Shown here: positions 1-52,822 of the stretch, piece after piece
Layout: the number at the start of each line of letters is the position of its first letter
Position numbering within the stretch: the first letter of the stretch is position 1
Assembly: GCA_040376695.1 (NCBI GenBank)
Contig: JBEIQD010000004.1
Span: forward strand, 1-57,815
Source of the DNA: Candidatus Nomurabacteria bacterium
GTDB lineage: Bacteria > Patescibacteriota > Minisyncoccia > Phycocordibacterales > UBA5272
Length of the DNA: 57,815 nucleotides
Direction: 5' to 3'
Notes under the pieces: model-generated
Told to the model about the DNA's origin: nothing
Database searches by the model: none
Seen by the model: only the letters and a program-made list of their open reading frames with translations
Translations under genes and position numbers: made by a program

Positions 1-141
1 GTTCTTTTACGAGTTACTAATCGTCATGCTCATTGCAGTACCGGTTACTTTAGTTTTAGGAGTTTTAACCAATCTAGTTTGGGGAGACTCGTTATTTAGT
101 GATATGGGCGCTTTCTACTTCATTACAGCCGGGTCGCTTAA
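1..141. repeat. Terminal direct repeat copy 1 (identical to 57675..57815)
   Basis: nt 1-141 (gttcttttacgag...gggtcgcttaa) recur exactly as the last 141 nt of the window; implies a closed/circular contig with a 57,674 bp unit. Confidence 0.95.
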
Positions 142-175
142 CTTAATGAATGCTTTCTCTCGTATTTTTGAATAA
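2..175 (+). CDS. small hydrophobic membrane protein, 3' part (ORF starts at 57664 across the junction; 61 aa in total)
   Basis: Frame continues from ATG 57664 through the repeat to TAA 173-175; hydrophobic sequence FFYELLIVMLIAVPVTLVLGVL. Confidence 0.5.
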   Translation, partial: FFYELLIVMLIAVPVTLVLGVLTNLVWGDSLFSDMGAFYFITAGSLNLMNAFSRIFE

Positions 176-188
176 GGAGGAAAATAAT

Positions 189-248
189 ATGAGTGTCTTT
201 CTTTTATTCTCTGTGATGATGTTGTTTATATTGATAGCAGATGATTAA
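189..248 (+). CDS. 19-aa hydrophobic micro-ORF (MSVFLLFSVMMLFILIADD)
   Basis: AAGGAGG 8 nt upstream of ATG 189; last ORF before the terminator. Confidence 0.3.
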   Translation: MSVFLLFSVMMLFILIADD

Positions 249-455
249 GCCCTTAACGGGGCTTTTTTATTTGTCTATTAATAGTATATTTAATGTGCCG
301 TAGGCACGATAACCAAAGTATCAACTAAATAATCAAAAGGAATAAATTAAGGAAAGAATTTTAAAAGGAAAACAATTAAGAAAATAATGAGAAAGCAAAG
401 AATTTCAAAAGGGAGGAAGCAATCACGAAGTGATTATAATAAGGGTTAACCTCTT
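245..455 (-). ncRNA. Candidate CU-rich small RNA transcribed from the consensus promoter at 462..490
   Basis: No ORF or SD downstream of a perfect promoter; UUCG-capped hairpin (421..435); four UCC-rich motifs including GCUUCCUCCC. The 3' end is undefined (hairpins at 295..307 and 248..263). Confidence 0.3.
248..270 (+). terminator. Rho-independent terminator ending the plus-strand operon
   Basis: Hairpin AGCCC-ttaacg-GGGCT followed by TTTTTT. Confidence 0.7.
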
Positions 456-461
456 AAAACC

Positions 462-490
462 ATTATAACAATATATAAAAATCCTGTCAA
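462..490 (-). promoter_or_regulatory. Perfect sigma-A/sigma-70 consensus promoter (TTGACA-17 nt-TATAAT)
   Basis: Minus strand reads ttgacaggatttttatatattgttataat; -35 at 485..490, -10 at 462..467, 17-nt spacer counted. Confidence 0.65.
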
Positions 491-546
491 ATTATTCTGA
501 GAAAGCAATCTTTTAAATGTGTCTAACTTGTGACAGATTAGGTTAT

Positions 547-1037
547 ATGCACGAATGTGCGTTTAATAGCCCTTTAGAGGACGAGCAAGCCAAACAGGTA
601 TCATAGTATTACTTGCACGGTTACAAAGGCAGGAGCAAGCCTTTAAATGCACAGTTATATGCACGGTTACAGATAATTTACTCATGCACGGTTAAATGCG
701 AGTTAAATGGGGGTTAATGATGCACTGTTGGCTTTCTCGTTACGTCCGGGTTAAATGACGGGTTACAACGGGGTTACTTATGCACGGTTACACACAGCTT
801 AATGCCGGGTTACATAATTTGAGATTCTCAAAAAATGAAATTTTAAAAAATTGATATTAGAGATTTATCTACCATACCACGACGGACTCACCCCGCTTCC
901 AAAATCTGGTGGGAACTTTTTATAAGTAAGTAACTTAAAGTAACCCGCACATTAAAAGTAAGTATACTAATATAACATGGCAGTGGTCAGACAACCGTAC
1001 AACTGGGGTTACATCGGGGTTACATGCACGGTACAAC
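547..1037 (+). repeat. Directional iteron-like array (ATGCAC[G/A]GTTAC and (C)GGGGTTAC units) flanking an AT-rich segment at 815..870
   Basis: ATGCAC starts in this span at 547, 647, 659, 684, 720, 780, 1024 (further copies at 1130, 1175, 1208, 1252, 1442, 1735, 1758). GGTTAC/GGTTAA units are dense in 613..1022. Confidence 0.8.
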
Positions 1038-1847
1038 TACCACTAGCTAATAGATATACAACCATAGTAACCCGTCACTATAACACGATAGTAATAGCAC
1101 AATAGTATACAACTATAACAACACACCACATGCACACTATACCCATATAATACTAGGTATTATAGTACTATACCATGCACAGTATACCACCATACTATAC
1201 CTATATAATGCACAGTTGTGCGGGTAAACTATACCCCTATAATGATACTACATGCACCATACAACTACATACTATACCGCTATAACAACACTTATATATA
1301 TAAGTATAATACCCGGCTTACTCATAGTGCATTACTTACTAAAAGTACCTAGATAATCTAAAGTAAATCACTTACAAAAAGTAAGCGAATAACCAAACGA
1401 AAGTCACTTACAAATGGTAAGCGAATCACATAGAATAACCTATGCACATACCTATAGCTACTTACTTTAAGTACATAGCACATCCTTATATACCTACTTA
1501 CTAATAGTGAGCAGGCTCTCTTTCATAACGTACTTACTATTAGTACACAAGGGGTATTTGCAGTAACTTACTTACTTTTAATAAGTGTCGGGTATATGAA
1601 GTTCATAATGTACTATTAGTAAGTGACTTACTTTTAGTAACCCGACGACCGGAACTTTACTATTAGTAACCTACTTACTTTAAGTAACTGCATACGATAT
1701 ACAAAAAAGTGCATACTCATAAAGATGTATATTTATGCACTGAATTATTGGATGATTATGCACAAAAGTGTATATACATATTACTTCCAACAACACCGAA
1801 ATAATAGGCAATAACTAGGAGAAAGCAAGCCACTTACTAAAAGTAAC
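924..1847. repeat. About 13 dispersed copies of the palindrome TTACT-N3-AGTAA
   Basis: Examples: 1334..1348, 1459..1474, 1494..1509, 1531..1546, 1610..1624, 1625..1641, 1655..1670, 1671..1688, 1831..1847. Two 23-mers tcacttacaaaNNgtaagcgaat at 1368..1390 and 1404..1426. Confidence 0.8.
1130..1316. repeat. Seven ACTATACC units (GGTATAGT on the minus strand), several followed by TATAAT
   Basis: cactatacccatataat, tactatacca, cagtatacca, atactatacctatataat, aactatacccctataat, tactataccgctataac, agtataatacccgg. Confidence 0.7.
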
Positions 1848-2015
1848 GACGTCTATTTCATCGTTTTTAAGCCCTGCTTCTCACTGAGCCTTATCTTACT
1901 ATTCATTCAGAATTTGACACCTCTTAAACGGGCTAAAAACAGCCTTCTCGTACAAATTCGTCTCTTTTGAACCAGTGCATATTCTCGACCGAGATTAGAT
2001 TGCATAAACGGTGTT

Positions 2016-2079
2016 AGACGTCAGACTTCTAGTTTGGAGACATCCAGTTGAATAAGTAAGACGTCAGACCTCTAATTTG
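2016..2079 (+). repeat. Two 21-nt direct repeats agacgtcagacYtctaRtttg
   Basis: Copies at 2016..2036 and 2059..2079; they share the GTCAGAC core with sites at 3250, 3304 and 3431. Confidence 0.7.
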
Positions 2080-2082
2080 AAC

Positions 2083-2106
2083 AAAAAAAAGAGAGCTTTC
2101 GCTCTC
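2083..2106 (-). terminator. Rho-independent terminator ending the minus-strand gene series
   Basis: Minus strand: GAGAGC-gaaa-GCTCTC followed by TTTTTTTT. Confidence 0.75.
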
Positions 2107-2449
2107 AGTTGCATTGAGTTTCATATCCAAACCCTACCATGTTGTCGAACTCATACAGGACGCATTCTTGACCCCAAACGATTGCAAGGTTTTCTGCCAT
2201 AGCTTTAATATCCTTAATCGTCACTTCCATCGGATTTACCGCCGTTTTGACCGTGTAACCCTTTTCCCGGATAACAAGCCCTGTACTGCCAATCCATGAG
2301 CCGTCATGCTCTAAGACCGTACAACCACCGAATTGAGCGGAAATGAGAGAGTGAGTGGACGCAAGCCGAACAATCCGAAGTTCTTCTGAAATATCGTTTC
2401 CGTTTGCATCGAACTGAGTTCCAATTGTAAAGATTGCCATTTTTAACAT
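2105..2449 (-). CDS. hypothetical protein (114 aa), last minus-strand gene
   Basis: Long ORF followed directly by a terminator; no motif recognised. Confidence 0.6.
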   Translation of the reverse strand: MLKMAIFTIGTQFDANGNDISEELRIVRLASTHSLISAQFGGCTVLEHDGSWIGSTGLVIREKGYTVKTAVNPMEVTIKDIKAMAENLAIVWGQECVLYEFDNMVGFGYETQCN

Positions 2450-2531
2450 AATAAGCGCTTCCTTTCGTCTTGCAGGTAGTAACGGGTTAACCGTTCTATG
2501 AGAAGCCCCACAGAGGGCTTCCTAACAACGT

Positions 2532-2852
2532 TTAACGGTCTGATTCCTCTTTGCAACCAACCATATAGCCGTCGATTGACTTCCAGTTCATTCCATCCGA
2601 TGCCATTTTCAGGACTCTTTTCAATGTCGAACGTTTGACCTCTTTTTCATCACCATTGTTCGGATTTACCATTGCATCGCCGTTTGAACAAAACGAGCAT
2701 CCGGCTAGACCAAACCGCCAAAACACTTCCACAACGTCATCCTCATGCCAAAACGTATCGTGTGCCATTTCAAGGGTTTTCATTGGAATACGAGCCGATT
2801 TGAACGCTTTAGTAATAATTACCATTTCTTCCGGTGTTAGTTCGAGTTTCAT
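2532..2852 (-). CDS. hypothetical protein (106 aa)
   Basis: ATG 2852 preceded by ctaGGAGGaattaac; the track ORF extends to 2882. Confidence 0.6.
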   Translation of the reverse strand: MKLELTPEEMVIITKAFKSARIPMKTLEMAHDTFWHEDDVVEVFWRFGLAGCSFCSNGDAMVNPNNGDEKEVKRSTLKRVLKMASDGMNWKSIDGYMVGCKEESDR

Positions 2853-2933
2853 GTTAATTCCTCCTAGTTTTTGGTAGGTCACAAGATTTGGGCAGATTCC
2901 CAGAATTTGGGGAAAAGCTGGTTTTCTTGTGCC

Positions 2934-2953
2934 TGTACTTAATATATGCCCTG
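2934..2953 (-). promoter_or_regulatory. Variant of the conserved phage box (cagGGCATATATTAAGTACA)
   Basis: About 80 nt upstream of the 2852 start; matches the box consensus except 3-4 positions. Confidence 0.4.
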
Positions 2954-3037
2954 TGGGCTGAAATTAAAACCCCATATTCCAAAATAAATCAAGTGTCACA
3001 AAATGTTCACAATTAGATATTTATTTTAGTGAAACAC

Positions 3038-3066
3038 TTGACAAATCCGATGAAGTTTGATATTTG
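3038..3066 (+). promoter_or_regulatory. Sigma-A-like promoter (TTGACA-17-TATTTG with a TGn extension), no ORF downstream
   Basis: TTGACA at 3038..3043, tGaTATTTG at 3058..3066. Confidence 0.3.
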
Positions 3067-3131
3067 CGTGTGCGCTCGCACATTATTATAGGAAAGCATT
3101 TTCCCTTAACACAATTCGATAAATCCGTCAA

Positions 3132-3150
3132 GGGGTAATATATTGACATT
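3132..3150 (+). promoter_or_regulatory. Plus-oriented variant of the conserved box (GGGGTAATATATTGACATT)
   Basis: First 13 nt fit the box; no ORF downstream. Confidence 0.3.
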
Positions 3151-3341
3151 GGAATGTGAAATAAAGGGGTTTGAATCTTTTTTAGTTGCATGATACAAAC
3201 AACTGTTCACTAACACACTTCGATGATAAAGTCAAGATGTTTATAAGATGTCAGACCGGGTAAAGACATATACGAACAAAAAACCGAACATCTTTGGTAG
3301 GAGGTCTGACCTCTCTATACAAGCGCCAGTTTCGACGGCTT

Positions 3342-3406
3342 GTTATACCTGTATAACTTATTCTGAGTTATATTGATATAACGAATTGTCGTTATACTGA
3401 TATAAC
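3342..3406. promoter_or_regulatory. Three 16-bp palindromes GTTATA-N4-TATAAC (operator-like triplet)
   Basis: gttatacctgtataac 3342..3357, gttatattgatataac 3367..3382, gttatactgatataac 3391..3406; centre spacing 25 and 24 bp; flanked by AGGTCTGAC at 3302 and 3429. Confidence 0.6.
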
Positions 3407-3489
3407 TCTTTTTCATGTTTAGAGAACAGAGGTCTGACAACATACCACCAGTCTGCAATCACAAGAAAAAGGTATTTTCATATTGCTTT

Positions 3490-3740
3490 TCAATTGTCAG
3501 AATAGTGTCGATTTAAAGAATATTTAAATTGTCAGAATATTCTACAATGAAAGACAATTGAAAAAGTACCTTCTTTTTTTGTGGAAAAAAATAAAGCATT
3601 AAAAGCGATTAGCAAGTTTTATCCGGCGGCGTGACGACGACATGACGATGAACGAGTGAGAAGAAGTTGACGAGATGAGAAGAACGAGAGAGAAAGAGAG
3701 TGATGAGAAGAAAAGACGAGAAAGCAAGTAAAAGAGAGTA
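3490..3740. repeat. Non-coding module copy A, proximal blocks (TTGTCAGAATA boxes, TTTTTTTGTGGAAAA, GC-rich patch, polypurine tract)
   Basis: Block-wise similarity to 7010..7230 (ttgtcagaatagtgtc, tttttttgtggaaaa, gaagaagttga[c/g]gag); about 110-nt purine-rich run at 3630..3740. Confidence 0.7.
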
Positions 3741-3991
3741 AAGCTAAATGACTTTTTTGACTATAGAGCTATGAGAATGCTGTTTTAAGCTACAGTAGCC
3801 CCACCACTAATAGTAGGATAACCACCCCACTACAGAGAAGCTCTTAGAGGGCATATAAGAGAGATTTTAAGAGATTGCTTTCTCATTCTTTCAAGAAAAA
3901 GTCTGAAAAACTTTAGAAAAACCGGTTTAAAATCTTGATAAAAAGGGTAAAAATGTTGTAAGAATGTCTTGAAATTCTTTGAAAAACCATG

Positions 3992-4015
3992 AGAAAAACC
4001 CTCAAATTTTGAGGG
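3992..4015 (-). terminator. Rho-independent terminator following A-tract array A
   Basis: Minus strand: CCCTCAAA-a-TTTGAGGG followed by TTTTTC. Confidence 0.6.
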
Positions 4016-4084
4016 AAAATCTCTCTTATTTTGTCCGAATTTCATCGAAATAATAGGGAATATTTTCCGAATTATTTTGAGATT

Positions 4085-4240
4085 TTGGGCTGAATTTTCC
4101 AGTGAATTTCCGGTGAAATTTGGCTGAATTTTTTGCCGTATTTTTTTCGGATTTTTTTTGAACTTTTTTCTGCATTTTTTCTGAATTTTTTTTGTGCTTT
4201 TTTTCGAGTTTTTTCCACACTTTTTCTGCGATTTTTTTAA
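4085..4240. repeat. Phased T-tract (A-tract on the sense strand) array A
   Basis: 10 runs of >=5 T starting at 4129, 4141, 4152, 4164, 4175, 4186, 4198, 4209, 4221, 4232 (mean spacing about 11.4 bp); homologous to 7590..7810. Confidence 0.85.
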
Positions 4241-4416
4241 GAAGTAAGCGAGTGTGTTTTCTCAATTGTAACACCCTCCAAAGAGTTGATAAACTTGACC
4301 GCTTCTTTCTCAGTGTCATAGTGAGATTCAAATAATATTTTAGTAAACATCCGGCAACGGACTGTATAACCGTCTTTCTCATTGCCGATGATATAGACCT
4401 TGATTGATTTTCTCAT
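4237..4416 (-). CDS. hypothetical small protein (59 aa)
   Basis: GGAG SD, TAATG overlap with the upstream gene; non-repetitive sequence. Confidence 0.55.
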   Translation of the reverse strand: MRKSIKVYIIGNEKDGYTVRCRMFTKILFESHYDTEKEAVKFINSLEGVTIEKTHSLTS

Positions 4417-4808
4417 TACCATTTCACTCCTTGAACTAGGATTTGACCTTTAGCATTGATGACTGCAATAAAAGAGCGAGAAACCGGGTTTAATGACTCT
4501 TTATCATAGAAGTAAGGGAAACGATAGGGGTTGTAACTGACTAATACGGTGTTTATTCCTCTATTGATAAACAAGTTGTTAGCATAGTAGCCGACGACGA
4601 AAGCATGAACGTTCTTCCGACCTTCTTTCAAGACTCTCGCTCTGCCTTTTCGATTGACTTGGAAATCTGCCGCTAACAGCGTGATTGAATCAGCATGGGC
4701 AACAACTAATCCGTTTTGCATAACAGAGAGCTTGCCGTTATTGAGGTTACGATAAACTTTAACCTTTTTATCATTGTCGATAGAACGTCCTTTATAAGAT
4801 GTAATCAT
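4416..4808 (-). CDS. hypothetical protein (130 aa)
   Basis: ATG 4808 after GAAAGGA SD; the conserved box lies 34 nt upstream. Confidence 0.6.
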   Translation of the reverse strand: MITSYKGRSIDNDKKVKVYRNLNNGKLSVMQNGLVVAHADSITLLAADFQVNRKGRARVLKEGRKNVHAFVVGYYANNLFINRGINTVLVSYNPYRFPYFYDKESLNPVSRSFIAVINAKGQILVQGVKW

Positions 4809-4842
4809 TTTAACCATCCTTTCAATTTTAGGCTTAATTGCT

Positions 4843-4862
4843 TGATAGTAGTATTTACCCCG
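4843..4862 (-). promoter_or_regulatory. Conserved phage box, exact 20-mer CGGGGTAAATACTACTATCA
   Basis: Identical 20-mer also at 17903..17922 (-) and 51573..51592 (+). Confidence 0.6.
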
Positions 4863-4886
4863 TACTATCAAGCTATAAACCGAAAA

Positions 4887-7560: not shown

Positions 7561-7589
7561 AATATTTGCCCCATTTCTCTAGGATTTTT

Positions 7590-7810
7590 ACGGAATTTTC
7601 AGCCAATTTTCCAGTGAATTTTCAGTGAATTTTTAGCTGAAATCTGGCTGAATTTTTTCCGTATTTTTTTCTGTATTTTTTCTGAACTTTTTTTGAATTT
7701 TTTTCTGAACTTTTTTTGAATTTTTTTCTGTACTTTTTTCGTATTTTTTTTGAACTTTTTTCTACACTTTTTCTGCATTATTTTTGCAGTTTTTTCTGAC
7801 ATTTTTTACC
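7590..7810. repeat. Phased T-tract (A-tract) array B with a 23-bp tandem core
   Basis: 14 runs of >=5 T starting 7653..7802 (mean spacing about 11.5 bp); ctgaactttttttgaattttttt repeated exactly at 7682..7704 and 7705..7727. Confidence 0.85.
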
Positions 7811-8655: not shown

Positions 8656-9222
8656 TCACCCCTCAATGATGTCTGAAATGATGTCCTCTACTTGGGTTAA
8701 TAAGTCTGCTAGCGTGGTATCTTTACCGTTATAAATAACATAGTCGGCATGGTCTTTGAATTGTTCGACATTTTCTGTGCTGTGACCTAACTCTAAGACC
8801 GATGCTTCCTCTCCTTTAGCTGTCATCCGTTCAACCTGTGCCATTGTATCTGTCTCAACGTAGATGATATGAGCGTCTTCGATACTCATATACCAAACTT
8901 CATTTTCTTGTCGAACATCGGTAACGATAGTTACTTGGTGATTACCAATTCTTTCACCCATTTCTTGTGCGACTGGTAAAGCCCAAACATCTCGACCTAA
9001 AATATCTCTAGCTCCCTGCCCAAAGTCTTGAATCAATCGTCGGTCTGTCTCTTTATTGAATGGTCTACCATGAGCAAGCGAGAACAGTTGCTTCATCTTG
9101 TCACCGAATGCTAACTGCTTAACGTCGGTATACTCCGGGTAACACATATCTAAATGTGCTTCAATCAAGTCTGCCACCGTGTTCTTACCACTTCTCATAC
9201 GACCTACAATTGCGATTTTCAT
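8656..9222 (-). CDS. deoxynucleoside monophosphate kinase-like P-loop protein
   Basis: Walker A IAIVGRMRSGKNT at the N-terminus; size about 188 aa; AAGGTGG SD before ATG 9222. Confidence 0.55.
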   Translation of the reverse strand: MKIAIVGRMRSGKNTVADLIEAHLDMCYPEYTDVKQLAFGDKMKQLFSLAHGRPFNKETDRRLIQDFGQGARDILGRDVWALPVAQEMGERIGNHQVTIVTDVRQENEVWYMSIEDAHIIYVETDTMAQVERMTAKGEEASVLELGHSTENVEQFKDHADYVIYNGKDTTLADLLTQVEDIISDIIEG

Positions 9223-9530
9223 TTCTTCGTCCACCTTTCAGCATACTCATGTTGTAATACTTTTCGTTTCTTAGCAATTGGAAACACTTCATCAATCCGT
9301 TTACCATCGTTGAACTGCTGTGTGTCGAATGCCTTTAAGAAAGCGTGTAATACATCTTTAGGCACTTTACAGTACATATAATCTGTCTGGCTTCTCGTTT
9401 TAAAAGTGTAATCGAGGAAGCGCATTGTAATACCTGTCGTGCCAACCGTTCCTTTTTGTGGTCGGTAAACCAAGTATACAAAGTTGTCATCCGGCGCTAA
9501 CTCCTTCAAGTAGATTTCATTTTCATCCAT
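9219..9530 (-). CDS. hypothetical protein (103 aa)
   Basis: ATG 9530 after AAGGCGGTG; the track uses GTG 9539. Confidence 0.55.
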   Translation of the reverse strand: MDENEIYLKELAPDDNFVYLVYRPQKGTVGTTGITMRFLDYTFKTRSQTDYMYCKVPKDVLHAFLKAFDTQQFNDGKRIDEVFPIAKKRKVLQHEYAERWTKK

Positions 9531-9572: not shown

Positions 9573-10037
9573 TTAAACCTTGAAGTATTGTTTAAGCATC
9601 CATACAATCGCTGTCGGGTCTTTTCTTAGAATGTCTATCTCGTCCTTTAAGAACATACAGAATGGAATGTCCGGATGGTACTTCTTAAATAGTCTCGTTC
9701 GCTTCTTAGAGCGGTCATCGAACCACCCTTTCACTTCGAGATAGCCACCGTACTCCGGGATGTAGAAGTCTGGCAAGTAGGATTCTTTCTCCTTATAGAA
9801 CTTGAAGCGCTTGGGTTCATATTCGTATTCGATACCGGCTTCAAAAAGTGCATCAGCTACGATTACTTCCCAAGTCGAGCGGTAAGTATGACCATCACGT
9901 TCGTGATATAACTTAACACTCTTTCGCTTTCTCGTCTTTCTCTTGCCTTTGACTTCTTCTGCCATGGCATCGTGTACATTCGTAAAATCTTTATCGTTAC
10001 ATCTCCATTTCTTCGTCTGGTAGTTGTAATAAATCAA
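9573..10037 (-). CDS. PD-(D/E)XK-type endonuclease-like protein
   Basis: Motif LPDFYIP...GGYLEVKG (D...E-x-K); TTG start with GAGGTG SD. Confidence 0.45.
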   Translation of the reverse strand: MIYYNYQTKKWRCNDKDFTNVHDAMAEEVKGKRKTRKRKSVKLYHERDGHTYRSTWEVIVADALFEAGIEYEYEPKRFKFYKEKESYLPDFYIPEYGGYLEVKGWFDDRSKKRTRLFKKYHPDIPFCMFLKDEIDILRKDPTAIVWMLKQYFKV

Positions 10038-10707
10038 GCTCCATCACCTCGGTGTAGGCTTCTCTAAAAGCCTTTTTAGACTTGGAGAGGTAGACGGGAA
10101 AACTCTTTTCTCCAATTCCTAGTTCATCAATAATTTCTTTCTCCCCTTTCCCTTCAAAGAAGTGCATCGTGATTACTTGTCGTTCACGCTTGGTTAATTT
10201 GTCGAGAGCGAGATAGAAACGAATGTCTGTAATCTCGTCTTCTCCTTCAAATACATCGTCAATATGTGTTGACTTGTGCTTATCAGCCGCTTCAAGCGAG
10301 ATGACAACCGTTCTATCTTCAACGTAATTGTTCATGTGGTTGAGAGTAGCATAACGGAACTGCATTTGTAGATAGCCGCTAAACAGCATATCTTTCGGGT
10401 CATCAGAGATATGATAATCGTTAACTGCTTTGGTAAAGACTTCGATTAAATGAAGTCTGAACTCACTCATATCTGTGAATTTACTTTTCTTCATGGTAGA
10501 AAAGAATAGTGGAATCATCATGTCGATTAAGTCCAAGAAAGCATTCTCGTCTCCTGTCTCTCGATAACGTCGGATTAACTTATTCTGTTGTACCCAACTT
10601 TCATGTCGGTTATCAAAATCACGGAAACGGAATAAATCTGGTGGTGGGCTGTCGCCACTCCAATTGTTTGCCATACCCATCAAAAAATCTAATCCGTTCA
10701 TAGTCAT
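9997..10707 (-). CDS. phage-encoded sigma-70-family (ECF-like) factor
   Basis: Region-2-like HLIEVFTKAVNDY...FSGYLQMQFRYATLNHM and region-4 HTH LTKRERQVITMHFFEGKGEKEIIDELGI...SKSKKAFRE. Confidence 0.7.
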   Translation of the reverse strand: MTMNGLDFLMGMANNWSGDSPPPDLFRFRDFDNRHESWVQQNKLIRRYRETGDENAFLDLIDMMIPLFFSTMKKSKFTDMSEFRLHLIEVFTKAVNDYHISDDPKDMLFSGYLQMQFRYATLNHMNNYVEDRTVVISLEAADKHKSTHIDDVFEGEDEITDIRFYLALDKLTKRERQVITMHFFEGKGEKEIIDELGIGEKSFPVYLSKSKKAFREAYTEVMELDLLQLPDEEMEM

Positions 10708-15019: not shown

Positions 15020-15520
15020 TTATAGTGAATATTTAGCCCGTAAAGCCTGTGAAACTGTCCGGGTCGGAACACCGTGCTTCTTCATCCGGCGACGGATTGT
15101 AGCTTCATCAACTCCTAGGAGAGAGCCAACTTCTCGTAATGATAGGTTAGCCGTGTAGTAAGCGTCGATGATAAACGGGATGTCGTCATTCAGTGCTTGC
15201 TCGTTAATTGTCAGCGTGAAGTTTGTGTTGTCCCGTGGTCGATGTTCTGTTGGGATAGTATACGAACTGAGAGTGCCGATTAAATCATCTAGGTCATCAT
15301 CGAATACTGCAACTGCTTCAAAACTTGGCACACGCTCTAAGTCTGAAAAGAGAACGAACTGTTTTTTACCACTTTCATTTTCATATTGGTAGTATGTTTC
15401 GGTTCGTAGTGTTACAGTTTGACCTGTCGCTGTTACAATTTCACCTCTGGTAAATGAGTGGTGAAAATCTTCGTTGCCAACTACCTCAAACACATCACCT
15501 TTTAAAACTTTCTCGCTCAT
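15020..15520 (-). CDS. DNA-binding protein: N-terminal small beta-barrel-like domain plus C-terminal HTH
   Basis: C-terminus LSLREVGSLLGVDEATIRRRMKKHGVPTR (HTH); N-terminus KGDVFEVVG...GEIVTATG. Confidence 0.5.
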   Translation of the reverse strand: MSEKVLKGDVFEVVGNEDFHHSFTRGEIVTATGQTVTLRTETYYQYENESGKKQFVLFSDLERVPSFEAVAVFDDDLDDLIGTLSSYTIPTEHRPRDNTNFTLTINEQALNDDIPFIIDAYYTANLSLREVGSLLGVDEATIRRRMKKHGVPTRTVSQALRAKYSL

Positions 15521-42629: not shown

Positions 42630-43430
42630 TTATTCACCTCCCTGTTCCATCATTTCTTTCCATGCTTTATAATCCGCTTCTGCTTTCTCCTCTGCTGACA
42701 TCTCAACTTTCTGTTCTTGACCGCCTTTCTCGTCAAGGTCGATTTGAGTGCCTGCTTCCAAGAATGCTTTGAATGCTTCTAACTGTTCATCTGAGAATGA
42801 CTTGACCAAGACTTTCATAGATTCTTCCTGTGCCGGAATAACCTTTTCTGAAAATTCTGTGACGATAGCCTGTGCCTTAGCTTCAAGTTCTTTCTCTGCG
42901 AATGCTTTCAATTGTTCTTCCATCTCGCTAAACTTAGAAAGATATTCTGCTTCAATCTGCTTTCGCATTTCAACTAATTTTTCTTCTTCCATCTCTTTAA
43001 CACCTCCGTCCTCTTTGAACATTTTAGCTCCTTTAAGTTGTGGGAATGCCACGATAGAAACCTCTCGTAAACGAGTCGGCTTGCTCCCTTTTTGATAAAA
43101 GCTAACCGATAGTTTTTGATTGAGCTTCTGTTCCACTCGTTCACGCCACTTAGAATCTACGATGTCAAGCTCGCCCATAAGGTTGTTACCATCAACCCAT
43201 ACATTGCGAACGAAACCAACGGTGTCTTTAGCCGAGCTAGAGTGGTCGATTTGAATTGGTGTCGGGTCATCGTTATCGAATGACTTAGCTAATGTGTGCA
43301 AGTCTTCTACGGTGTAATCTACATTACGATGTTTTCCGGCAGAGAATAAGATACCCGTCTTTGTAGACTTTGCTTCCTCCCCTTCAATACTTTCAAAATT
43401 AATTACACTTTCAAATTCAAACATATCCAT
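42630..43430 (-). CDS. prohead serine protease (HK97/S78-like) fused to a coiled-coil scaffolding domain
   Basis: PIQIDHSSS...GFVRNVWVDGNNLMGELDI...LSVSF...LREVSIVAFPQLKGA fits the S78 pattern; C-terminal EEKLVEMRKQIEAE... coiled coil; ATG 43430 after GGAGGTGAAATA. Confidence 0.6.
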   Translation of the reverse strand: MDMFEFESVINFESIEGEEAKSTKTGILFSAGKHRNVDYTVEDLHTLAKSFDNDDPTPIQIDHSSSAKDTVGFVRNVWVDGNNLMGELDIVDSKWRERVEQKLNQKLSVSFYQKGSKPTRLREVSIVAFPQLKGAKMFKEDGGVKEMEEEKLVEMRKQIEAEYLSKFSEMEEQLKAFAEKELEAKAQAIVTEFSEKVIPAQEESMKVLVKSFSDEQLEAFKAFLEAGTQIDLDEKGGQEQKVEMSAEEKAEADYKAWKEMMEQGGE

Positions 43431-43565: not shown

Positions 43566-43738
43566 GGGGTTAAGGGGGTTATAACCGGTTAAGTAACTTG
43601 TTAAGTAACAGGTTTAGATACATAATAATATAGGGTATGTTATAACTAGTTAATAAAAAAGAATATAAAGAATAATATAAAAGAGAATAGTTTAATAATA
43701 ATTTAATAAGGGTAATAGATAGTAAAGGAGGAGAAAGC

Positions 43739-44200
43739 ATGAAGTATAATAAAAAAGAATTAGAACCTAAGTTTCGTTTATATTATTTAGACATTACAGA
43801 GAGAGTAGCATCTCTTAGTACTTGTAAAAGAGCTAATGTAGGATGTGTTATAGTCAAGGATAATAAAATCATTAGTACAGGTTATAACGGTTCAGTAAGG
43901 GGAGCAAGCCATTGTTCAGATGTAGGTTGCTTGATGGTCGATGACCACTGTATGCGCTGTCTCCATGCTGAGGTTAATGCGATTGCCTTTGCTGAGAAAG
44001 ACGATTTAAAACGGGCTACATTGTTTTGCACTCATAAACCATGCCTATCTTGTTTCAATCTCTTAGCCCAAGTCGGTATAACAGATGTAGTTTATATCAA
44101 CGACTATGGCAAGAGCGAGCCAAAGGTTGAAGAATATTATTGGCAGATTAAAAGAACCCGTGGTATCACTTTCCATAAAGGTGATACAGACTACTACTAA
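43739..44200 (+). CDS. dCMP deaminase (ComEB-like)
   Basis: Zinc motifs CLHAEVNAI and THKPCLSCFNLL. Confidence 0.85.
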   Translation: MKYNKKELEPKFRLYYLDITERVASLSTCKRANVGCVIVKDNKIISTGYNGSVRGASHCSDVGCLMVDDHCMRCLHAEVNAIAFAEKDDLKRATLFCTHKPCLSCFNLLAQVGITDVVYINDYGKSEPKVEEYYWQIKRTRGITFHKGDTDYY

Positions 44201-47230: not shown

Positions 47231-47647
47231 ATGAACGATATTCAACGGATGGTAATTGTAGAAACAATGAAAGAAGCGGAAGATAAAATCTCAGAGATTA
47301 CAGCTCTTATGCTTGAACTTGGTTTTGAAGTGTTTGACCGAGAGGAGCAAGAGGATGTTGATGTAATTCCTTATCTCGACCGGATGAAAGAGATTCATGC
47401 AAAGGGTGATGTCATTCTCGAAGACCTAGAGCAAGAAGTTATGAATATGCCGGAAGATATGCAGGAATGGGATTTTACCGGTGACAAAGAATACATCGGC
47501 TATCACGAAGGTATCTATGCACATCTTAACATCATCTTAGCGACCGTTGAAGAAGTCATTGAAACCTGTGTCATCCTCGATTACGAGACAACCCTTAAAT
47601 GGGCATATGAGAATGATATGATTGCAGATGAAGAGGAGGGCGAATAA
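47231..47647 (+). CDS. highly acidic hypothetical protein (138 aa)
   Basis: Very D/E-rich; first gene of the long plus operon. Confidence 0.55.
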   Translation: MNDIQRMVIVETMKEAEDKISEITALMLELGFEVFDREEQEDVDVIPYLDRMKEIHAKGDVILEDLEQEVMNMPEDMQEWDFTGDKEYIGYHEGIYAHLNIILATVEEVIETCVILDYETTLKWAYENDMIADEEEGE

Positions 47648-48507
47648 TGTTTACAGCAGATATGATTTGGGCAACTTACGCTCATTTAATTGATGACATC
47701 GGGGTTAGTGATGCTAACCGGGCTGTCCGGGCTAAGTGGGGTGATACCGGGGAACTGGCAACATCTCATATGTTACCGTCAGCAGGGCATCATACTTTCA
47801 ACGTAGGAGAAGGCGATTTCGGTTTGACTACAATCAAACACGTTCCTACTAAGAAAGCGATTGACGAGATTCGATGGATTTATCAAGATAAGTGTAATGA
47901 TGTTTATTTGCTCGAAGAAAAGTATGGAATTAAATGGTGGCGCTCTTGGGCTTATGCAGATGGTTCAATTGGAAAGAGCTATGGTTATCAAATCGCAAAC
48001 AAAAAGCGAGATGTACGAATTGATGGAAAATTAGTTCAGCTTGACCAGATGGACTGGCTCTTATACAAATTAAAGAACAGCCCAGACCGTCGGATGATTA
48101 TGTCAATGTTCTCACCAGAAGATGAACACAATAAAGCATTGCAAGAATGTGCTTATGAAACGATTTGGACTGTCCGGGGAGACGAGCTGAACATGATGCT
48201 CATTCAACGGTCATCAGATTACTTTGTAGCAGGAGCTATCAATCAATTCCAATACTGCTGTCTCCTAGCAATGGTAGCCCATGCAACCGGCTATAAAGTG
48301 GGTGTAATGGAATACGTTATCGCTGACTTGCATATGTATGACCGTCATCGAGAACAGGTTATGGAGATTAGTAAGCGTGAACCGAAGGAGCAACCAAAGG
48401 TCAAGTTGAAAGAGGATGCACCGAAAGACTTCTACAAAATCACTAGTGACCACTTTGAAATTGAATATGAATCCTACCCACCGGATAAAATGGATGTAGC
48501 GATTTAA
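47647..48507 (+). CDS. thyA: thymidylate synthase family protein (ThyA-like, divergent active-site loop)
   Basis: SPDRRMIMS, ALQECAYE (Cys retained, Pro/His lost), IQRSSDYFVAGAINQFQY (Asn retained), ADLHMYDRH. Confidence 0.75.
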   Translation: MFTADMIWATYAHLIDDIGVSDANRAVRAKWGDTGELATSHMLPSAGHHTFNVGEGDFGLTTIKHVPTKKAIDEIRWIYQDKCNDVYLLEEKYGIKWWRSWAYADGSIGKSYGYQIANKKRDVRIDGKLVQLDQMDWLLYKLKNSPDRRMIMSMFSPEDEHNKALQECAYETIWTVRGDELNMMLIQRSSDYFVAGAINQFQYCCLLAMVAHATGYKVGVMEYVIADLHMYDRHREQVMEISKREPKEQPKVKLKEDAPKDFYKITSDHFEIEYESYPPDKMDVAI

Positions 48508-48513
48508 GCACTT

Positions 48514-48543
48514 GCCTACCTTGGTTTTGAGGTAGGCTTTTTG
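48514..48543 (+). terminator. Rho-independent terminator after thyA
   Basis: GCCTACC-10 nt-GGTAGGC followed by TTTTTG. Confidence 0.7.
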
Positions 48544-48569
48544 TGTTACTAATATAGGAGGTGGCTAAT

Positions 48570-49304
48570 ATGTCAGAAAGAAAACCGAGACGCTATAACA
48601 AGCGTAGCGAAATTATGAAAGAGGTTACAAGTAAAATGCAGGACGATTTAGAGCGTGGTGACTTCCAAGTACAAGCGTTGAGACGAGAGGACTTAAAAGA
48701 TATTCAAACATTATATTCAGACTCACCGGAGACAGCTATCGAGCGCTACAATGAGCTTGTAGACGAGCTTGAAGATTCCCCGGTCTTTTGTGGTTATCCG
48801 ACCTTTAACGGAGAACAAATGTTATTGTGCGATAAGAAACCATGGACGAACAATCAAGGCGTTTGTAATGGTCGTTGTATGGAACATCACCGGGAAGGTC
48901 AATTGCAGTACGCCGATAAGAGTGTGGTTCACATTCGTTCGGATATGGCTAAGAGCATCTATCTCACATATCCGGCAATGCGATTTACATTACAGGAGAA
49001 AGCGCTTTATATCAGTACAATGAATTGGTTTGTACAGATGGATGAACGGGCTACACCTTTAGACATCATGGTGTTAGACCGTGGTTTGAGAGCCTTTATT
49101 AATGCTGTACGGATGGAGAGCCGGGTAGGTATGGATGCAGTACCGACGACTCGTAAAGAAGACCAAGACTTTGATATTAAGTTCTTGAAGTGCATCACTA
49201 CCCTAGGGTTAGACCGGAAGTTCCGGTTACAACAAGAAGGAAAGGAGCAAGCTGTTAAAGGGGCTACAAGCATCTTTGACATGATGATGGAGGATGATGA
49301 ATAA
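48570..49304 (+). CDS. possible small terminase subunit (244 aa)
   Basis: Basic N-terminus, ATGA overlap with the large terminase; assignment by position only. Confidence 0.35.
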   Translation: MSERKPRRYNKRSEIMKEVTSKMQDDLERGDFQVQALRREDLKDIQTLYSDSPETAIERYNELVDELEDSPVFCGYPTFNGEQMLLCDKKPWTNNQGVCNGRCMEHHREGQLQYADKSVVHIRSDMAKSIYLTYPAMRFTLQEKALYISTMNWFVQMDERATPLDIMVLDRGLRAFINAVRMESRVGMDAVPTTRKEDQDFDIKFLKCITTLGLDRKFRLQQEGKEQAVKGATSIFDMMMEDDE

Positions 49305-50962
49305 TGGACAGAAAGGAACTAGCTAAGAAGCTAAAAGACCCGTTATTTTTTACGGAGTATACCGGTACAATCAAGGGTAAGCCGTTTACATTTGCCGGAC
49401 ACGAACCGAATAAAGCGGTCTACTCTGACCGTTCACCACGGGTAATTGTAGTAGCCGGACGGCAGGTTGCAAAGAGTGAAACGTGTGTACGATTACTATT
49501 GGCTAAAGCCTTTGTAAACCCTCATTACACATTCACTTACGGCTCTCCTATCGACACGATTACAAACCGTTTCCAAGCTGACCGGTTCCGTCCTGCTATC
49601 AAAGATGGACGACATAATCTATTGGAGAACGCCGTTGAGAAAGGTCGTGACTTACTCTCTGCAACACGATTCAAAAATAATACTATCATCTACTTTACTT
49701 CTTTGTACGGAGACGGAGACAGCGCCCGGGGTATTGCCGGTGATATTGTGTTCTTTGATGAAGTACAGGATGTCAGTCAGAATGCGATTGAGAACACGAT
49801 TAAGAACACCAGTCACTCACAGGTTTATTACGAGGAGTACGAGATTCGTGGTCAATCTTATTTCTTTGGCACACCGAAGGAAGCAGGCTCGTATTACCAG
49901 ACAATGTGGATGCTGTCGGACATGAAGAAATGGTATGTCACCTGTACTAATACAGATTGCTGTGAGGAGCAGTTAGTGACGTTTAACCATATCAAACAGA
50001 TTCCAGACAAACCAGACCGCTACCGGTTCGAGTGCCACTATTGTGGAACAGAGCTAGACCGGAATAACGGACGATGGATTGCTACTAACCCGGATGCACA
50101 CCCCGGTTGGAGCGGCTATCACTACAGTCAGTTATACTTCCCTCACAACACGGCTACATCCATTATGATGGATTATCGTACAATGTCTGCTGACCGTTTC
50201 TCGAATGAGGTTTTAGGAGAGTTTTACAGTGGTTCTAAGAAGCCATTGACACGGGAAGTAATCGACCGTAACTCAGACTATACAAAGGGCATGGAGTTCC
50301 AATCAGAAGACTTCACTTACATGGGAGTTGACTGGGGTGGAGGAGTAGCGAGTAAAACTATCGTTCATATCATTCGACCAACCGATGATGACCGGTTCGA
50401 GATTATCTATGCAGAGGAAATTCGGGAACAGGACTTTGAGAAGAAGTTGCAGTACATCCTGCAATTACAACACCAGTATAGAGTCGAGAAGACCGTCGTT
50501 GACTTAGGTTACGGGGCGTATGAGAATGATTGGCTGTATAACCAGATGGGCAGTATGGTTAACGCTTGTCGTTACAGCAACTTTGAACGAGAACCTCACA
50601 AAAGGAAGCGAGACGGAAAGAATATCATCATGGTTGACCGGACGTTCATCATTGACAAGATTGTAGACTTGTTCCATAAAGAGCGCTTCATCCTACCGAG
50701 ACAGAACAAAGCAGAGTGGGAAATCTTTATCGACCATTATACAGCTATCGAAGTCGAGTACAAGGTCAGCCAATCGGGAACAGGTAAAAAGATTTACACC
50801 CATAAGACACCAGATGATTCACTACACGCTTTAACGTATGCTTACTTGGCTTGGAGAGAGTCTAGTAATACCTTCACTTATGATTTCAATGAGCGAGACA
50901 CGTTAGAAGTAGGAGACATTCTGACAGCGATGGGAGAGGACGATTTACCAAGTTGGGGCTAA
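49304..50962 (+). CDS. terL: terminase large subunit
   Basis: Walker A VVAGRQVAKSE, Walker B IVFFDEVQD; C-terminal nuclease-like region; 552 aa. Confidence 0.85.
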   Translation: MDRKELAKKLKDPLFFTEYTGTIKGKPFTFAGHEPNKAVYSDRSPRVIVVAGRQVAKSETCVRLLLAKAFVNPHYTFTYGSPIDTITNRFQADRFRPAIKDGRHNLLENAVEKGRDLLSATRFKNNTIIYFTSLYGDGDSARGIAGDIVFFDEVQDVSQNAIENTIKNTSHSQVYYEEYEIRGQSYFFGTPKEAGSYYQTMWMLSDMKKWYVTCTNTDCCEEQLVTFNHIKQIPDKPDRYRFECHYCGTELDRNNGRWIATNPDAHPGWSGYHYSQLYFPHNTATSIMMDYRTMSADRFSNEVLGEFYSGSKKPLTREVIDRNSDYTKGMEFQSEDFTYMGVDWGGGVASKTIVHIIRPTDDDRFEIIYAEEIREQDFEKKLQYILQLQHQYRVEKTVVDLGYGAYENDWLYNQMGSMVNACRYSNFEREPHKRKRDGKNIIMVDRTFIIDKIVDLFHKERFILPRQNKAEWEIFIDHYTAIEVEYKVSQSGTGKKIYTHKTPDDSLHALTYAYLAWRESSNTFTYDFNERDTLEVGDILTAMGEDDLPSWG

Positions 50963-51018: not shown

Positions 51019-51561
51019 ATGAACTACTTTGGTAGACCGATTAAGTTCATATTCTCAAAAGACTTACACGGAAATACAACGAAAGGTGCATTCGATTTAA
51101 TCGCCACTCACCCAAGCGATATGGACTTCTTTAAGCGGACTACAATGAACCATGTAGTGCTGATGGGATATGCCACTTATATGACGTTAGAGAAGCCGTT
51201 GCCCGGCAGATTGAATGTTGTGTTCAGCGAACAAGATTTAGACAACACAGACTTACGAGAAGGGTTTCACTCGTTGCAATTTTCACACGAATTGATTCGA
51301 GATTTCTTAGATTTCGACCAAGACCGTATCGTATGGTGCATCGGAGGAGTTAATACGTTCGAAGCGCTTATTCGTATCACTCAGAGCTATCCTAGTGAAA
51401 TGATGATTACAACTTATAAGACGATTGTAGAAGACGGTAACCGACCGGCATCTTTCCTTGGAGAATTATCATCTGACGATAATTGGAAAGCATACCCTGT
51501 TCACATCGGGGAGAATATGGAGTTCGATATTAAACTATGGAAGATTAAAAGAAAGGTTTAA
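51019..51561 (+). CDS. folA: dihydrofolate reductase-like protein
   Basis: DMDFFKRTTMNHVVLMGYATYMTLEKPLPGRLNVVFS and IGGVNTFEALI fit the DHFR core; N-terminus is divergent. Confidence 0.6.
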   Translation: MNYFGRPIKFIFSKDLHGNTTKGAFDLIATHPSDMDFFKRTTMNHVVLMGYATYMTLEKPLPGRLNVVFSEQDLDNTDLREGFHSLQFSHELIRDFLDFDQDRIVWCIGGVNTFEALIRITQSYPSEMMITTYKTIVEDGNRPASFLGELSSDDNWKAYPVHIGENMEFDIKLWKIKRKV

Positions 51562-51828: not shown

Positions 51829-52092
51829 ATGAAAATGACAGAAGTTAAAACAGGTATGAAAGTAGCGGCATTCGGAATTGCACCGGCAGACACGTTCTTC
51901 ACAGGAGCAGAAAATGGAGATAGCGGAACTGTACTAGTTGCTATCGGTGAACCACTTCCACGACACGAAAATTTAAAACCAGAATCAGAAGGTAAAATTT
52001 CAGAATACGTTTATGTCATCTTAGATAAAAACGGAGAGTTGCTTGTGCTTGACGAAACTCAATCGGTTGTAGTATTAGAAGGAGGAAACTAA
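51829..52092 (+). CDS. small paralog-array protein 2 (87 aa)
   Basis: VKTGMKVAAF...ADTFFTG...GDSGTVLV; ends VLEGGN with the identical junction. Confidence 0.55.
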   Translation: MKMTEVKTGMKVAAFGIAPADTFFTGAENGDSGTVLVAIGEPLPRHENLKPESEGKISEYVYVILDKNGELLVLDETQSVVVLEGGN

Positions 52093-52093
52093 T

Positions 52094-52360
52094 ATGGAAT
52101 TAACACAATTAAAACGGGGCGACAAAGTACGTGTAACTAAATTATCGGCGGCAGATGTTCAGTTTACAGATGTTCAACCGGGTGATTTACTGACGGTTCA
52201 CGCCGGGTTAAATGAGATTGTTCTTGCTCACGAAGAAATCAACGAAGCTATCCATGGTACACCAAATGTTTTTGGGGTAGTTATGGCTTTCTCATCAGAG
52301 GGGCAAGGGTTCTTGATTAGCGAGGAGAATGAAGTCGAGCTAGTATTGGAAGGGGAGTAA
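52094..52360 (+). CDS. small paralog-array protein 3 (88 aa)
   Basis: LKRGDKVRVT...ADVQFTD...GDLLTVH; ends VLEGE. Confidence 0.55.
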   Translation: MELTQLKRGDKVRVTKLSAADVQFTDVQPGDLLTVHAGLNEIVLAHEEINEAIHGTPNVFGVVMAFSSEGQGFLISEENEVELVLEGE

Positions 52361-52362
52361 TT

Positions 52363-52572
52363 ATGAAAAAGAAAAATGCCCGTTTAGGGATGAAGGTTCA
52401 GATTAAAGATGGAGCTTGGCTAGTCGAAGATACTAAAGTCGGAGATGTTCTGACTGTAACCCGATTAACACCTTTTGGTATGTGGCTAGCTGAAAAAGGT
52501 AAAACAACCGGTGAAGCTCATTTCTACACTTACAACGAAGTTCGGCAGGTGAGAGGTCATGCCTATCTATAA
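52363..52572 (+). CDS. small paralog-array protein 4 (69 aa)
   Basis: RLGMKVQIKDG...VGDVLTVT. Confidence 0.5.
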   Translation: MKKKNARLGMKVQIKDGAWLVEDTKVGDVLTVTRLTPFGMWLAEKGKTTGEAHFYTYNEVRQVRGHAYL

Positions 52573-52822
52573 GGAAGGTGATTACGTCCAAGTAACGAGT
52601 CTATATACCATAGACTCTTATTTGGGTCTTGAAGTCGGTGATATTTTCTGCATCGAGAAAGATTGCCCACATGAAGGTGGAATTTTATTCCGACCTAATG
52701 GAAACACAGCTCTCTCTGCTAGGGAGTTTGCAAGTGAAGAAGATGATGGTTGTTATGTTCTATTATATAGTCAGATTGAGCCGGTCAACTCACTAGTAGG
52801 AGAAATGTTTAGAAAGAATTAA
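52559..52822 (+). CDS. small paralog-array protein 5 (87 aa)
   Basis: YKEGDYVQVT...VGDIFCIE. Confidence 0.5.
   Translation: MPIYKEGDYVQVTSLYTIDSYLGLEVGDIFCIEKDCPHEGGILFRPNGNTALSAREFASEEDDGCYVLLYSQIEPVNSLVGEMFRKN

Follow-up and report, generated by a model that had tools for sequence, protein, structure and literature searches.

A repeat-rich non-coding locus of an uncultured Bacillus-type phage as a candidate genome-end or packaging centre with a neighbouring candidate RNA gene

Why should a phage genome keep 1.8 kb of DNA that is crowded with short repeats and encodes no recognisable protein? The question is raised by positions 270-2082 of contig JBEIQD010000004.1 (assembly GCA_040376695.1, deposited as Candidatus Nomurabacteria bacterium), which was analysed over its full 57,815 nucleotides (nt) and is called the window here. 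The window is a whole circular assembly whose first 141 bases equal its last 141 (an assembler overlap), giving about 57.67 kb of unique sequence. It looks like a Bacillus-type, siphovirus-type phage with a lytic-looking gene set, and neither an integrase nor a repressor was found among the 45 open reading frames (ORFs) screened, a set that left some small ORFs outside. From sequence comparison it appears well supported that the interval is a selectively maintained, dedicated cis-acting non-coding locus and not random spacer, and equally that it is composite, combining a candidate non-coding RNA (ncRNA) gene with arrays of putative protein-binding repeats. As to the function of the arrays, a genome-end or packaging centre is the reading that we tentatively prefer. 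A replication origin is its main rival, and the two are not mutually exclusive.

A conserved locus of repeat arrays

The initial annotation described the interval as an ORF-free stretch between convergent terminators with more than 35 repeat sites, and in these respects it was accurate: the longest ORF in any frame has 44 amino acids (aa), intrinsic terminators stand at both edges (Table 1) and the site count is correct. The expectation that the motifs would be commoner here than in background was also borne out. Nineteen 9-mers occur at least three times in the interval, compared with 0.2 +/- 0.6 in 200 dinucleotide-preserving shuffles, and 41 8-mers do so, compared with 2.9 +/- 2.1. According to genome-wide counts, the words of the repeat families are nearly exclusive to the interval, which holds every copy of TGCACGGT (5 of 5), GGTATAGT (5 of 5, all on the minus strand), the TACT-N3-AGTA palindrome (all 8) and TTAC-N5-GTAA (6 of 6), together with 8 of the 17 copies of GGGTTAC; TACTA is enriched 5.5-fold. 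The three repeat families first proposed are all real, but the inventory was incomplete, as ATGCAC (17 of 41 genome copies, about 20-fold enriched) runs through all blocks and GACGTCAGAC forms a further family at 2013-2079. Likewise, the TTACT-N3-AGTAA palindromes that had been placed from 924 onwards do exist at 1316-1850, whereas the units at 924-962 are direct AGTAA half-sites.

The proposal of a dedicated cis-acting centre is upheld by comparison with two relatives. The first, L053, is an IMG/VR contig and the one close relative, found by a pattern scan of that database with a pair of family 1 motifs. Most of 287-1039 is 85-99% identical to L053, compared with 66% at four-fold degenerate sites of neighbouring genes (n = 754), which served as the neutral yardstick, and the conserved blocks alternate with neutral-looking spacers. 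The second, L265, consists of the last 17.9 kb of the genome-sized Logan contig SRR27540947_18171 (57,957 nt); it is a distant relative recovered by a search with the large terminase gene (terL, whose product is 58% identical to that of the window), and it contains the same kind of locus. A coding remnant was considered and rejected, given indels of 49, 22 and 11 nt relative to L053 and the ORF length stated above. Rfam returned no gathering-score match over the whole window and only noise, with E about 1 or worse, for positions 1-4400; no tRNA or tmRNA was found.

Table 1. Coordinates of the features discussed in the text. Identities refer to the close relative L053.
Feature	Position	Strand	Details
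Intrinsic terminator of the plus-strand operon, bidirectional-looking	247..274	+	terminator at 247-264, 7-bp stem and T-run; stem kept in L053
Candidate ncRNA	287..455	-	about 170 nt, CU-rich, largely unstructured, conserved in L053
Perfect sigma-A promoter TTGACA-17-TGnTATAAT, upstream of the candidate ncRNA	462..490	-	12/12 match
CTGAGAAAGCAATC box	497..511	+	
Conserved unique block	513..609		palindrome GCACGAATGTGC at 549-560; 89% identical, P = 3e-7 against neutral
Family 1 array, left set: GGTTA(C/A) and ATGCACGGTTA units	610..812	+	619, 665, 690, 712, 749, 761, 772, 786, 808; also 541
Conserved AT-rich unique block TTGAGATTCTCAAAAAATGAAATTTTAAAAAATTGAT...	813..905		88% identical
Right set: direct AGTAA half-sites (925-962) and last family 1 units (1007, 1018, 1029)	915..1039	+	85% identical
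ATAGTAA / CTATAACA word block	1040..1124		one minus-oriented GGGTTAC at 1067
Family 2 array: five GGTATAGT units	1125..1312	-	units within 1125-1290; ends in AT palindrome 1288-1307
Family 3 array: about 14 TTAC(T)-N3/5-(A)GTAA palindromes	1316..1850		core ACTA-N-TAGT
Two 24-nt direct repeats GT(T/A)AGACGTCAGAC(T/C)TCTA(G/A)TTTG	2013..2079	+	related words at 3244-3440
Intrinsic terminator of the minus-strand operon	2081..2106	-	hairpin 2106-2091 and T-run
Sigma-like factor	9997-10707		
Helix-turn-helix (HTH) protein	15020-15520		
Small terminase gene (terS) homologue	48561-49304		adjoins terL
gpA-type large terminase (terL)	49304-50962		

Within the locus, family 1 occupies the part to the left of 1040. 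At least 10 plus-oriented units lie in 541-812, and nearly all units of the family share one orientation, towards 1040. Adjacent GGTTA pairs are spaced by 10-12 or 21-23 bp in 45% of cases, compared with 10% expected (P = 0.002), and L053 lacks 49 nt and 22 nt of family 1 units while keeping the motifs. The AT-rich block between the left and right sets (813-905) ranks third to fourth among the least stable 40-60-bp windows of the genome. To the right of 1040, family 2 reads on the plus strand as ACTATACC-YN-TATAAT 16-mers at 1136, 1194, 1228 and 1271, with another at 1167, and family 3 includes two tandem 36-nt hairpin units at 1354-1426. An asymmetry of G·U against A·C in the hairpins was dropped as uninformative, being driven by base composition.

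Genome ends in relatives and the origin alternative

Minus-strand genes run from 43.5 kb down to 2105 and plus-strand genes from 47.2 kb across the contig junction as far as 248, so that the locus lies at a convergent junction. Cumulative GC skew peaks there, but this was dropped as evidence, being confounded by gene orientation. The closest deposited phages are the Bacillus and Geobacillus phages of the GBK1, 056SW001B and Andromeda group (DnaE about 40% identical; relative to Andromeda-like phages, terL is 42-45% and terS 30% identical). These relatives have short-repeat arrays at the same map position as in the window, after the long plus operon and before the minus-strand small genes. Andromeda and 056SW001B carry exact direct terminal repeats of 852 bp (L263 1-852 = 48408-49259) and 839 bp (1-839 = 51854-52692), respectively, both of which contain a terS-like gene. 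In each, five to six one-directional short repeats, non-coding, abut the left boundary of the terminal repeat, with GGGTT-type units in Andromeda and CTGAGG or CTAATGAGG units in 056SW001B, and equivalent arrays surround the conserved end sequence CCCTCCCCTCGAYGAGG in GBK1, L391 and L392. In Andromeda, GCTGAGAAAGCAATCC, the same 14-mer as window 497-510, lies 142 nt upstream of the terminal-repeat boundary (weak statistics). Short-repeat arrays also flank the terminal repeat of T7. The terminal repeats of Andromeda and 056SW001B are, in addition, flanked on both sides by CTGAGG/CTCGAGG-type arrays; neither these arrays nor the terminal repeats themselves are entered in the feature tables read.

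The arrays of Andromeda, 056SW001B and GBK1 resemble family 1 in being non-coding and one-directional with units of 6-16 bp, in their map position and, in Andromeda, in the CTGAGAAAGCAATC box. They differ in that the array here is 3-5 times longer and uses other words, in that terS lies outside the flanked segment, in the lack of the clade end sequence CCCTCCCCTCGAYGAGG, of which the window has no copy, and in that the terminal repeat of this phage is a prediction. A second non-coding feature of the relatives recalls family 3. Upstream of an endonuclease gene, an AT-rich locus carries ACTA-N0-2-TAGT palindromes in GBK1 (42904-43406), 056SW001B (50591-50890) and L391 (5120-5504), where it accounts for 3 of 3, 3 of 9 and 3 of 5, respectively, of the copies found; in the window, 4 of 6 copies lie within family 3. 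In 056SW001B this locus is about 1 kb away from the terminal repeat; in GBK1 and L391 it lies upstream of the terS-like gene. Both it and family 3 have a clustered core in AT-rich non-coding DNA, right after an operon terminator and near the genome end, although the locus of the relatives covers 300-500 bp with 3 sites, compared with about 530 bp and about 14 sites here. Genes separate the palindrome locus from the terminal-repeat arrays in the relatives, whereas here both kinds of element stand within one ORF-free stretch, which looks as though two non-coding loci, flanking genes in the relatives, had been fused and expanded.

Contig ends and the position of terS bear on the same question. 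Each of the lineage's three long assemblies has an end inside the locus or no more than 270 nt from it: the window 270 nt away, L053 at 1039, right after the last family 1 unit, and L265 inside a family-2-like block. If breaks were random, the joint chance of three such ends would be about 1e-4 by estimate. The repeats of the locus are shorter than assembler k-mers, and candidate causes are physical ends, a coverage step or length heterogeneity in the population. The terS homologue, for its part, is about 7 kb from the locus on the circular map and has no repeat arrays nearby; since it has moved next to terL without arrays, and CCCTCCCCTCGAYGAGG is absent, the packaging signal must lie elsewhere. 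Family 1 stands at the ancestral map position of the relatives' arrays.

The packaging reading, which we hold as the most probable of several but with reserve, would make the locus a DNA-processing centre at the concatemer junction, whose arrays serve sequence-specific proteins. The one-directional GGTTAC/ATGCACGGTTA array (541-1037) would be the counterpart of the Andromeda-like arrays that abut the 0.85-kb terminal repeat, recruiting the small terminase subunit and directing the cut close to 1040. The terminator-insulated segment of about 1040-1900, with its ACTATACC and palindrome arrays, would either form a non-coding terminal repeat or adjoin one, and a DNA-binding protein kept throughout the clade would occupy the palindrome array. 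The left 200 bp would form a separate RNA gene for a CU-rich transcript of about 170 nt, initiated at the phage's strongest host-type promoter. What the data show is the anatomy of the locus, its enriched words, its conservation, the promoter and the existence of homologous or analogous loci in relatives, whereas the binding of terminase, the site of the cut and the terminal repeat in this phage, as well as any role of the RNA, are what we infer.

Several observations weigh against this preference. The physical end of this phage is a prediction from sequence comparison and contig ends, and a collapsed terminal repeat alone should not break an assembly graph, so that array length heterogeneity could explain the contig ends. 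The terminal repeat of the relatives carries terS, whereas here it would be non-coding, and the small terminase gene is not adjacent to the arrays as it is in the relatives. The likeness to their arrays is marginal (CTGAGAAAGCAATC box, E = 0.26 in a small search space), the only significant similarity being that of family 2 to L265. The terL product is of the lambda gpA ATPase type, which alone does not predict terminal repeats. Finally, the TGGTAG array of L265 is bidirectional and thus more origin-like.

L265 has the synteny of the window, with a plus-operon terminator, seven small minus-strand genes and then a non-coding stretch as far as the contig end. Behind the promoter of the small genes, this stretch contains 18 TGGTAG in 430 nt, arranged in sets of 2-4 at 10-11-bp spacing and in alternating orientation, with AT-rich spacers between the sets; an TATAGTATA/ACTATAC block follows, to which window 1144-1207 aligns with E = 1.5e-4. 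From the family 2 alignment and the shared synteny it follows that the locus is a feature of the lineage in which the words turn over.

Such an architecture also fits a replication origin, which is a possible but less likely account. In that case, the GGTTAC units would be initiator iterons, 813-905 and/or the AT-rich ACTATACC 16-mers would act as the DNA unwinding element (DUE) where a DnaB-type helicase is loaded, and the palindromes would modulate the process. Direct hexamer and heptamer repeats with helical-turn spacing do lie on both sides of the conserved, unstable AT-rich block, the unit-number indels of L053 spare the motifs, and L265 keeps the architecture with another iteron word (TGGTAG instead of GGTTAC). 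Bidirectional TGGTAG sets flanking AT-rich DNA are found beside primase, VapE or D5-type helicase genes in five of six unrelated viral contigs, and in L049 22-bp iterons with TGCACGGTTAC accompany a protein that has a weak match to Rep3. Origins of this design are known from Staphylococcus aureus pathogenicity islands (SaPIs); those of SaPI and P4 type have penta- or hexanucleotide iterons flanking their AT-rich centre on either side (PMC9371898), and the SPP1 origins comprise direct repeats together with a DUE that is AT-rich, one of these origins being intergenic (PMC6316719). The TGGTAG sets by primase and helicase genes, together with the SaPI and SPP1 precedents, seem to us the best support for the origin.

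The likeness to SaPI- and P4-type origins and to oriL and oriR of SPP1 (PMC9371898, PMC6316719) extends to short, helically phased iterons, an AT-rich block at the centre and words specific to each lineage. However, in SaPIs the iterons point towards each other and directly follow the rep gene, whereas those of family 1 are nearly all one-directional, no recognised initiator gene is nearby and the locus is about five times larger; 1.8 kb with five word families far exceeds what an origin needs. No Rep, initiator or winged-helix family was identified in the flanking genes or the 45 screened ORFs, and sequence searches of PDB were empty, although orphan proteins could be initiators; the neighbours at 2105-2449 and 2532-2882 are such orphans. 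The proteins encoded upstream of the helicase bear no similarity to SPP1 gp38 or gp39. There is no cluster of DnaA boxes (13 one-mismatch boxes genome-wide, compared with 15.6 expected, and one in the locus), the least stable DNA of the genome is elsewhere, at 43.5-43.7 kb, and an origin at the convergent junction would set every gene head-on to replication. The initial annotation had listed an origin and a packaging site among its candidates, and these are now the two leading readings. It had also listed a partition site; for one of the plasmid or prophage kinds parS, parC and tubC, no ParA, ParB, ParR or TubZ partner was found in the ORF screen. The iterons of L049, an unrelated IMG/VR contig, are three copies of ACTGCACGGTTACCCCCCATTT at 8977-9042, right after the 330-aa protein whose weak hit is to Rep3 WH1; what they have in common with the window units is the 11-mer TGCACGGTTAC.

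The replication genes among the screened ORFs encode a DnaE-type polymerase, a DnaB helicase, a primase and a ribonucleotide reductase (RNR), and the screen also identified two resolvases, a PD-(D/E)XK nuclease, a Mu-type portal and tail genes. A nucleotide-metabolism set (deoxycytidine monophosphate deaminase, a ThyA-like protein, dihydrofolate reductase, MazG and a deoxynucleoside monophosphate (dNMP) kinase, at 43739-44200, 47647-48507, 51019-51561, 53153-53488 and 8656-9234, plus the RNR) may hint at modified or heavily remodelled nucleotide pools.

Searches for further relatives returned little. The DNA of 270-2082 has no match among GenBank phages and plasmids, nor has that of 28-48 kb among phages. 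IMG/VR scans with a family 3 pair, a family 2 pair or a TGGTAG triple gave unrelated or chance loci only; in the same database terL retrieved L053 again and no other relative, and the dNMP kinase had no match. The flanking protein 2105-2449 is an orphan in protein searches, and the matches of the 4416-4871 protein are distant and non-syntenic only.

Regulatory, RNA-level and fork-barrier readings of the arrays

The repeats were at first thought to be built from fragments of the phage promoter box. The promoter itself, (G)GTTTA-N14/15-GGGTAwATAyTAsTAT, is real, with about 17-20 copies directly upstream of Shine-Dalgarno (SD) motifs and start codons (for example at 51556, 17939, 4880, 25723 and 47150), and it is presumably read by the phage sigma-like factor. 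It is kept in the distant relative L265 (about 17282 and 3610-3790). Inside 270-2082, however, there is no copy: position weight matrices (PWMs) for the -35 and the full -10 element give 0 matches at or above 8 bits, and only the short GGGGTAwAtA core, taken alone, is mildly enriched by PWM. L265, moreover, keeps the box yet has a different iteron word, and a derivation of the repeats from the box is thus not sustained.

The same result removes support from a sink for the sigma-like factor, one form of the idea that the locus is a regulatory sink or operator field. The arrays would then titrate or organise the HTH protein, the sigma-like factor or a host nucleoid protein, timing the early-to-middle switch or countering silencing. 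Palindromes of 13-15 bp are typical of dimer operators, the HTH gene upstream of the polymerase is kept in relatives, and GGTTA and AGTAAC words form a mini-cluster at 43567-43610, just downstream of the other perfect sigma-A promoter of the genome. The divergent promoter region of L265 nevertheless has no TGGTAG words of its own, and a co-variation of the iteron words with that region was rejected for this reason. A decoy for the silencer Rok, which had been suggested from its reported TACTA preference, gains from the enrichment of that word in the locus but loses from the clustering of the palindrome core in a Geobacillus phage too. That ACTA-N-TAGT occurs in Geobacillus, B. subtilis and uncultured-host phages speaks for a binder encoded by the phages and against a single host factor like B. 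subtilis Rok, on the assumption that Rok is not as widely distributed. We know of no precedent for a 1.8-kb decoy in a lytic siphovirus, and overall we regard a sink as unlikely. The mini-cluster mentioned above, GGGGTTAAGGGGGTTATAACCGGTTAAGTAACTTGTTAAGTAAC, covers the first transcribed bases of the promoter at 43537 and combines family-1-like words with family 3 half-sites.

A function at the RNA level is rather improbable. It would require that transcription of 1040-1870 yield at least one long RNA, structured or of the sponge kind, in which the repeats are RNA motifs or hairpins. The segment 1316-1870 does fold better than shuffles on both strands (z = -4.8 and -6.3), the minus strand has a tandem pair of hairpins with U-rich tails at 1424-1368, the strand skew is strong (G 10% on the plus strand at 1040-1320) and a 10/12 promoter occurs on the plus strand at 1282-1310. 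Yet palindromic DNA yields such z-scores on both strands whether or not it is transcribed, no strong promoter or convincing terminator serves such an RNA, families 1 and 2 are direct repeats phased to the DNA helix, and the equivalents in relatives lie at DNA ends.

Lower still is our estimate for a fork barrier or terminus, or a pause in DNA entry of the T5 kind, in which oriented, protein-bound arrays would stall forks or incoming DNA. The position is convergent and terminus-like, at the peak of cumulative GC skew, although the skew merely tracks gene orientation; families 1 and 2 are opposed around 1040-1125, although they carry different words. Fork stalling has been proposed for gp38-bound oriR of SPP1 (PMC6316719), and an injection stop for the untranslated repeat regions of T5, which are 0.2-1.2 kb long and conserved above ORFs (bioRxiv 10.1101/866236). 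T5 Repeat Regions 1-3 (bioRxiv 10.1101/866236) resemble the locus as large untranslated stretches near a genome end with nested direct and inverted repeats as well as palindromes, in a conservation above that of neighbouring ORFs and in the strong host-type promoters nearby. They are located inside a 10-kb terminal repeat and have paired DnaA boxes, in contrast to the lack of T5-like boxes here, and the phage families are unrelated. The model as a whole is purely architectural.

Other repeats lie in the neighbourhood. A 19/20 inverted repeat, TGAGAAAGCAATCTTTTAAA, at 498-517 and 3866-3885 has one arm over the CTGAGAAAGCAATC box and brackets 3.4 kb, which comprises the whole repeat locus, the orphan genes 2105-2882 and a second non-coding stretch. 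The latter, ORF-poor and with repeats of its own (2883-4025), includes a 20-nt palindrome pair (3365-3408) as well as a 35-nt tandem repeat (3488-3557); GTCAGAC words at 3250, 3310 and 3438 are related to words of 2014-2079. At 4082-4237 and 7584-7807, two paralogous arrays, built of CTGAATTTTTT-type units that recur every 11 bp, contain phased A-tracts, and their DNA is probably strongly curved. The array at 7.8 kb is also readable on the minus strand as a lysine-rich ORF of about 60 aa.

A candidate RNA gene at the left edge

The picture of a locus made purely of repeats, with no gene, does not hold for its left 200 bp, where a perfect sigma-A promoter precedes a highly conserved candidate transcribed block. 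Only two 12/12 sigma-A promoters exist in the genome, this one (490..462, minus strand) and the one at 43537 (plus strand), which heads the divergent early region. Positions 287-467 are identical to L053 at 179 of 181 sites (P about 1e-29 against 66% neutral), compared with 38% identity in the 16 nt beyond. The conserved block extends from the -10 box to 8 nt past a hairpin at 305..293, and in the promoter the two hexamers and their 17-nt spacing persist around a spacer that is 65% identical. The block contains no ORF that reaches 25 aa. Taken together, promoter, conservation and lack of an ORF make it probable that 287..455 is an independent ncRNA gene. The candidate has no Rfam match and is an RNA without a described family, as well as the best-conserved sequence that could be compared in the phage.

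The predicted transcript has a 5' hairpin, AAUCACUUCGUGAUU, a 3' hairpin, GUGCC-UAC-GGCAC (305..293), and four anti-SD-like UCCUU/CCUCC motifs, with a fold z-score of -1.4. Its 3' hairpin has no U-tract, and the next hairpin (270..247) has a poor U-tail on the minus strand. Firmicute trans-acting small RNAs of the RsaE/RoxS type carry C/U-rich, anti-SD-like seed motifs. The candidate is similar to them in its sigma-A promoter, a length of 150-200 nt and several unpaired pyrimidine motifs complementary to the SD; it differs in having UCCUU/CCUCC motifs instead of CCCC, almost no secondary structure and no Rfam match. A crude duplex search of the RNA against translation-start regions of the phage gave no target above shuffles, and a 20-mer of it met only chance matches in metagenome and genome collections. 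An 18-nt exact reverse-complement match connects 371-388, within the gene, to 56613-56630, which is intergenic and upstream of the gene at 56660.

A more speculative and, in our view, unlikely extension is that the gene-free terminal repeat and the arrays enter the cell first, and that their sole product is a pre-early, highly expressed, unstructured CU-rich RNA with several anti-SD-like motifs, whose target would be host translation or a host factor that binds RNA, at a time when no phage protein yet exists. If true, this would be an RNA-only first-step programme and a functional parallel of the T5 pre-early proteins.

For this uncultured phage lineage, the analysis predicts a genome end or terminal-repeat boundary near 1040 and an RNA of about 170 nt that starts near 455. 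It also brings out unannotated cis-elements common to the Andromeda/GBK1-like phages of Bacillus and Geobacillus, namely the boundary arrays and the ACTA-N-TAGT palindrome cluster. If the arrays are terminase sites, their recognition words (GGTTAC, TGGTAG, CTGAGG) would turn over while the architecture stays.

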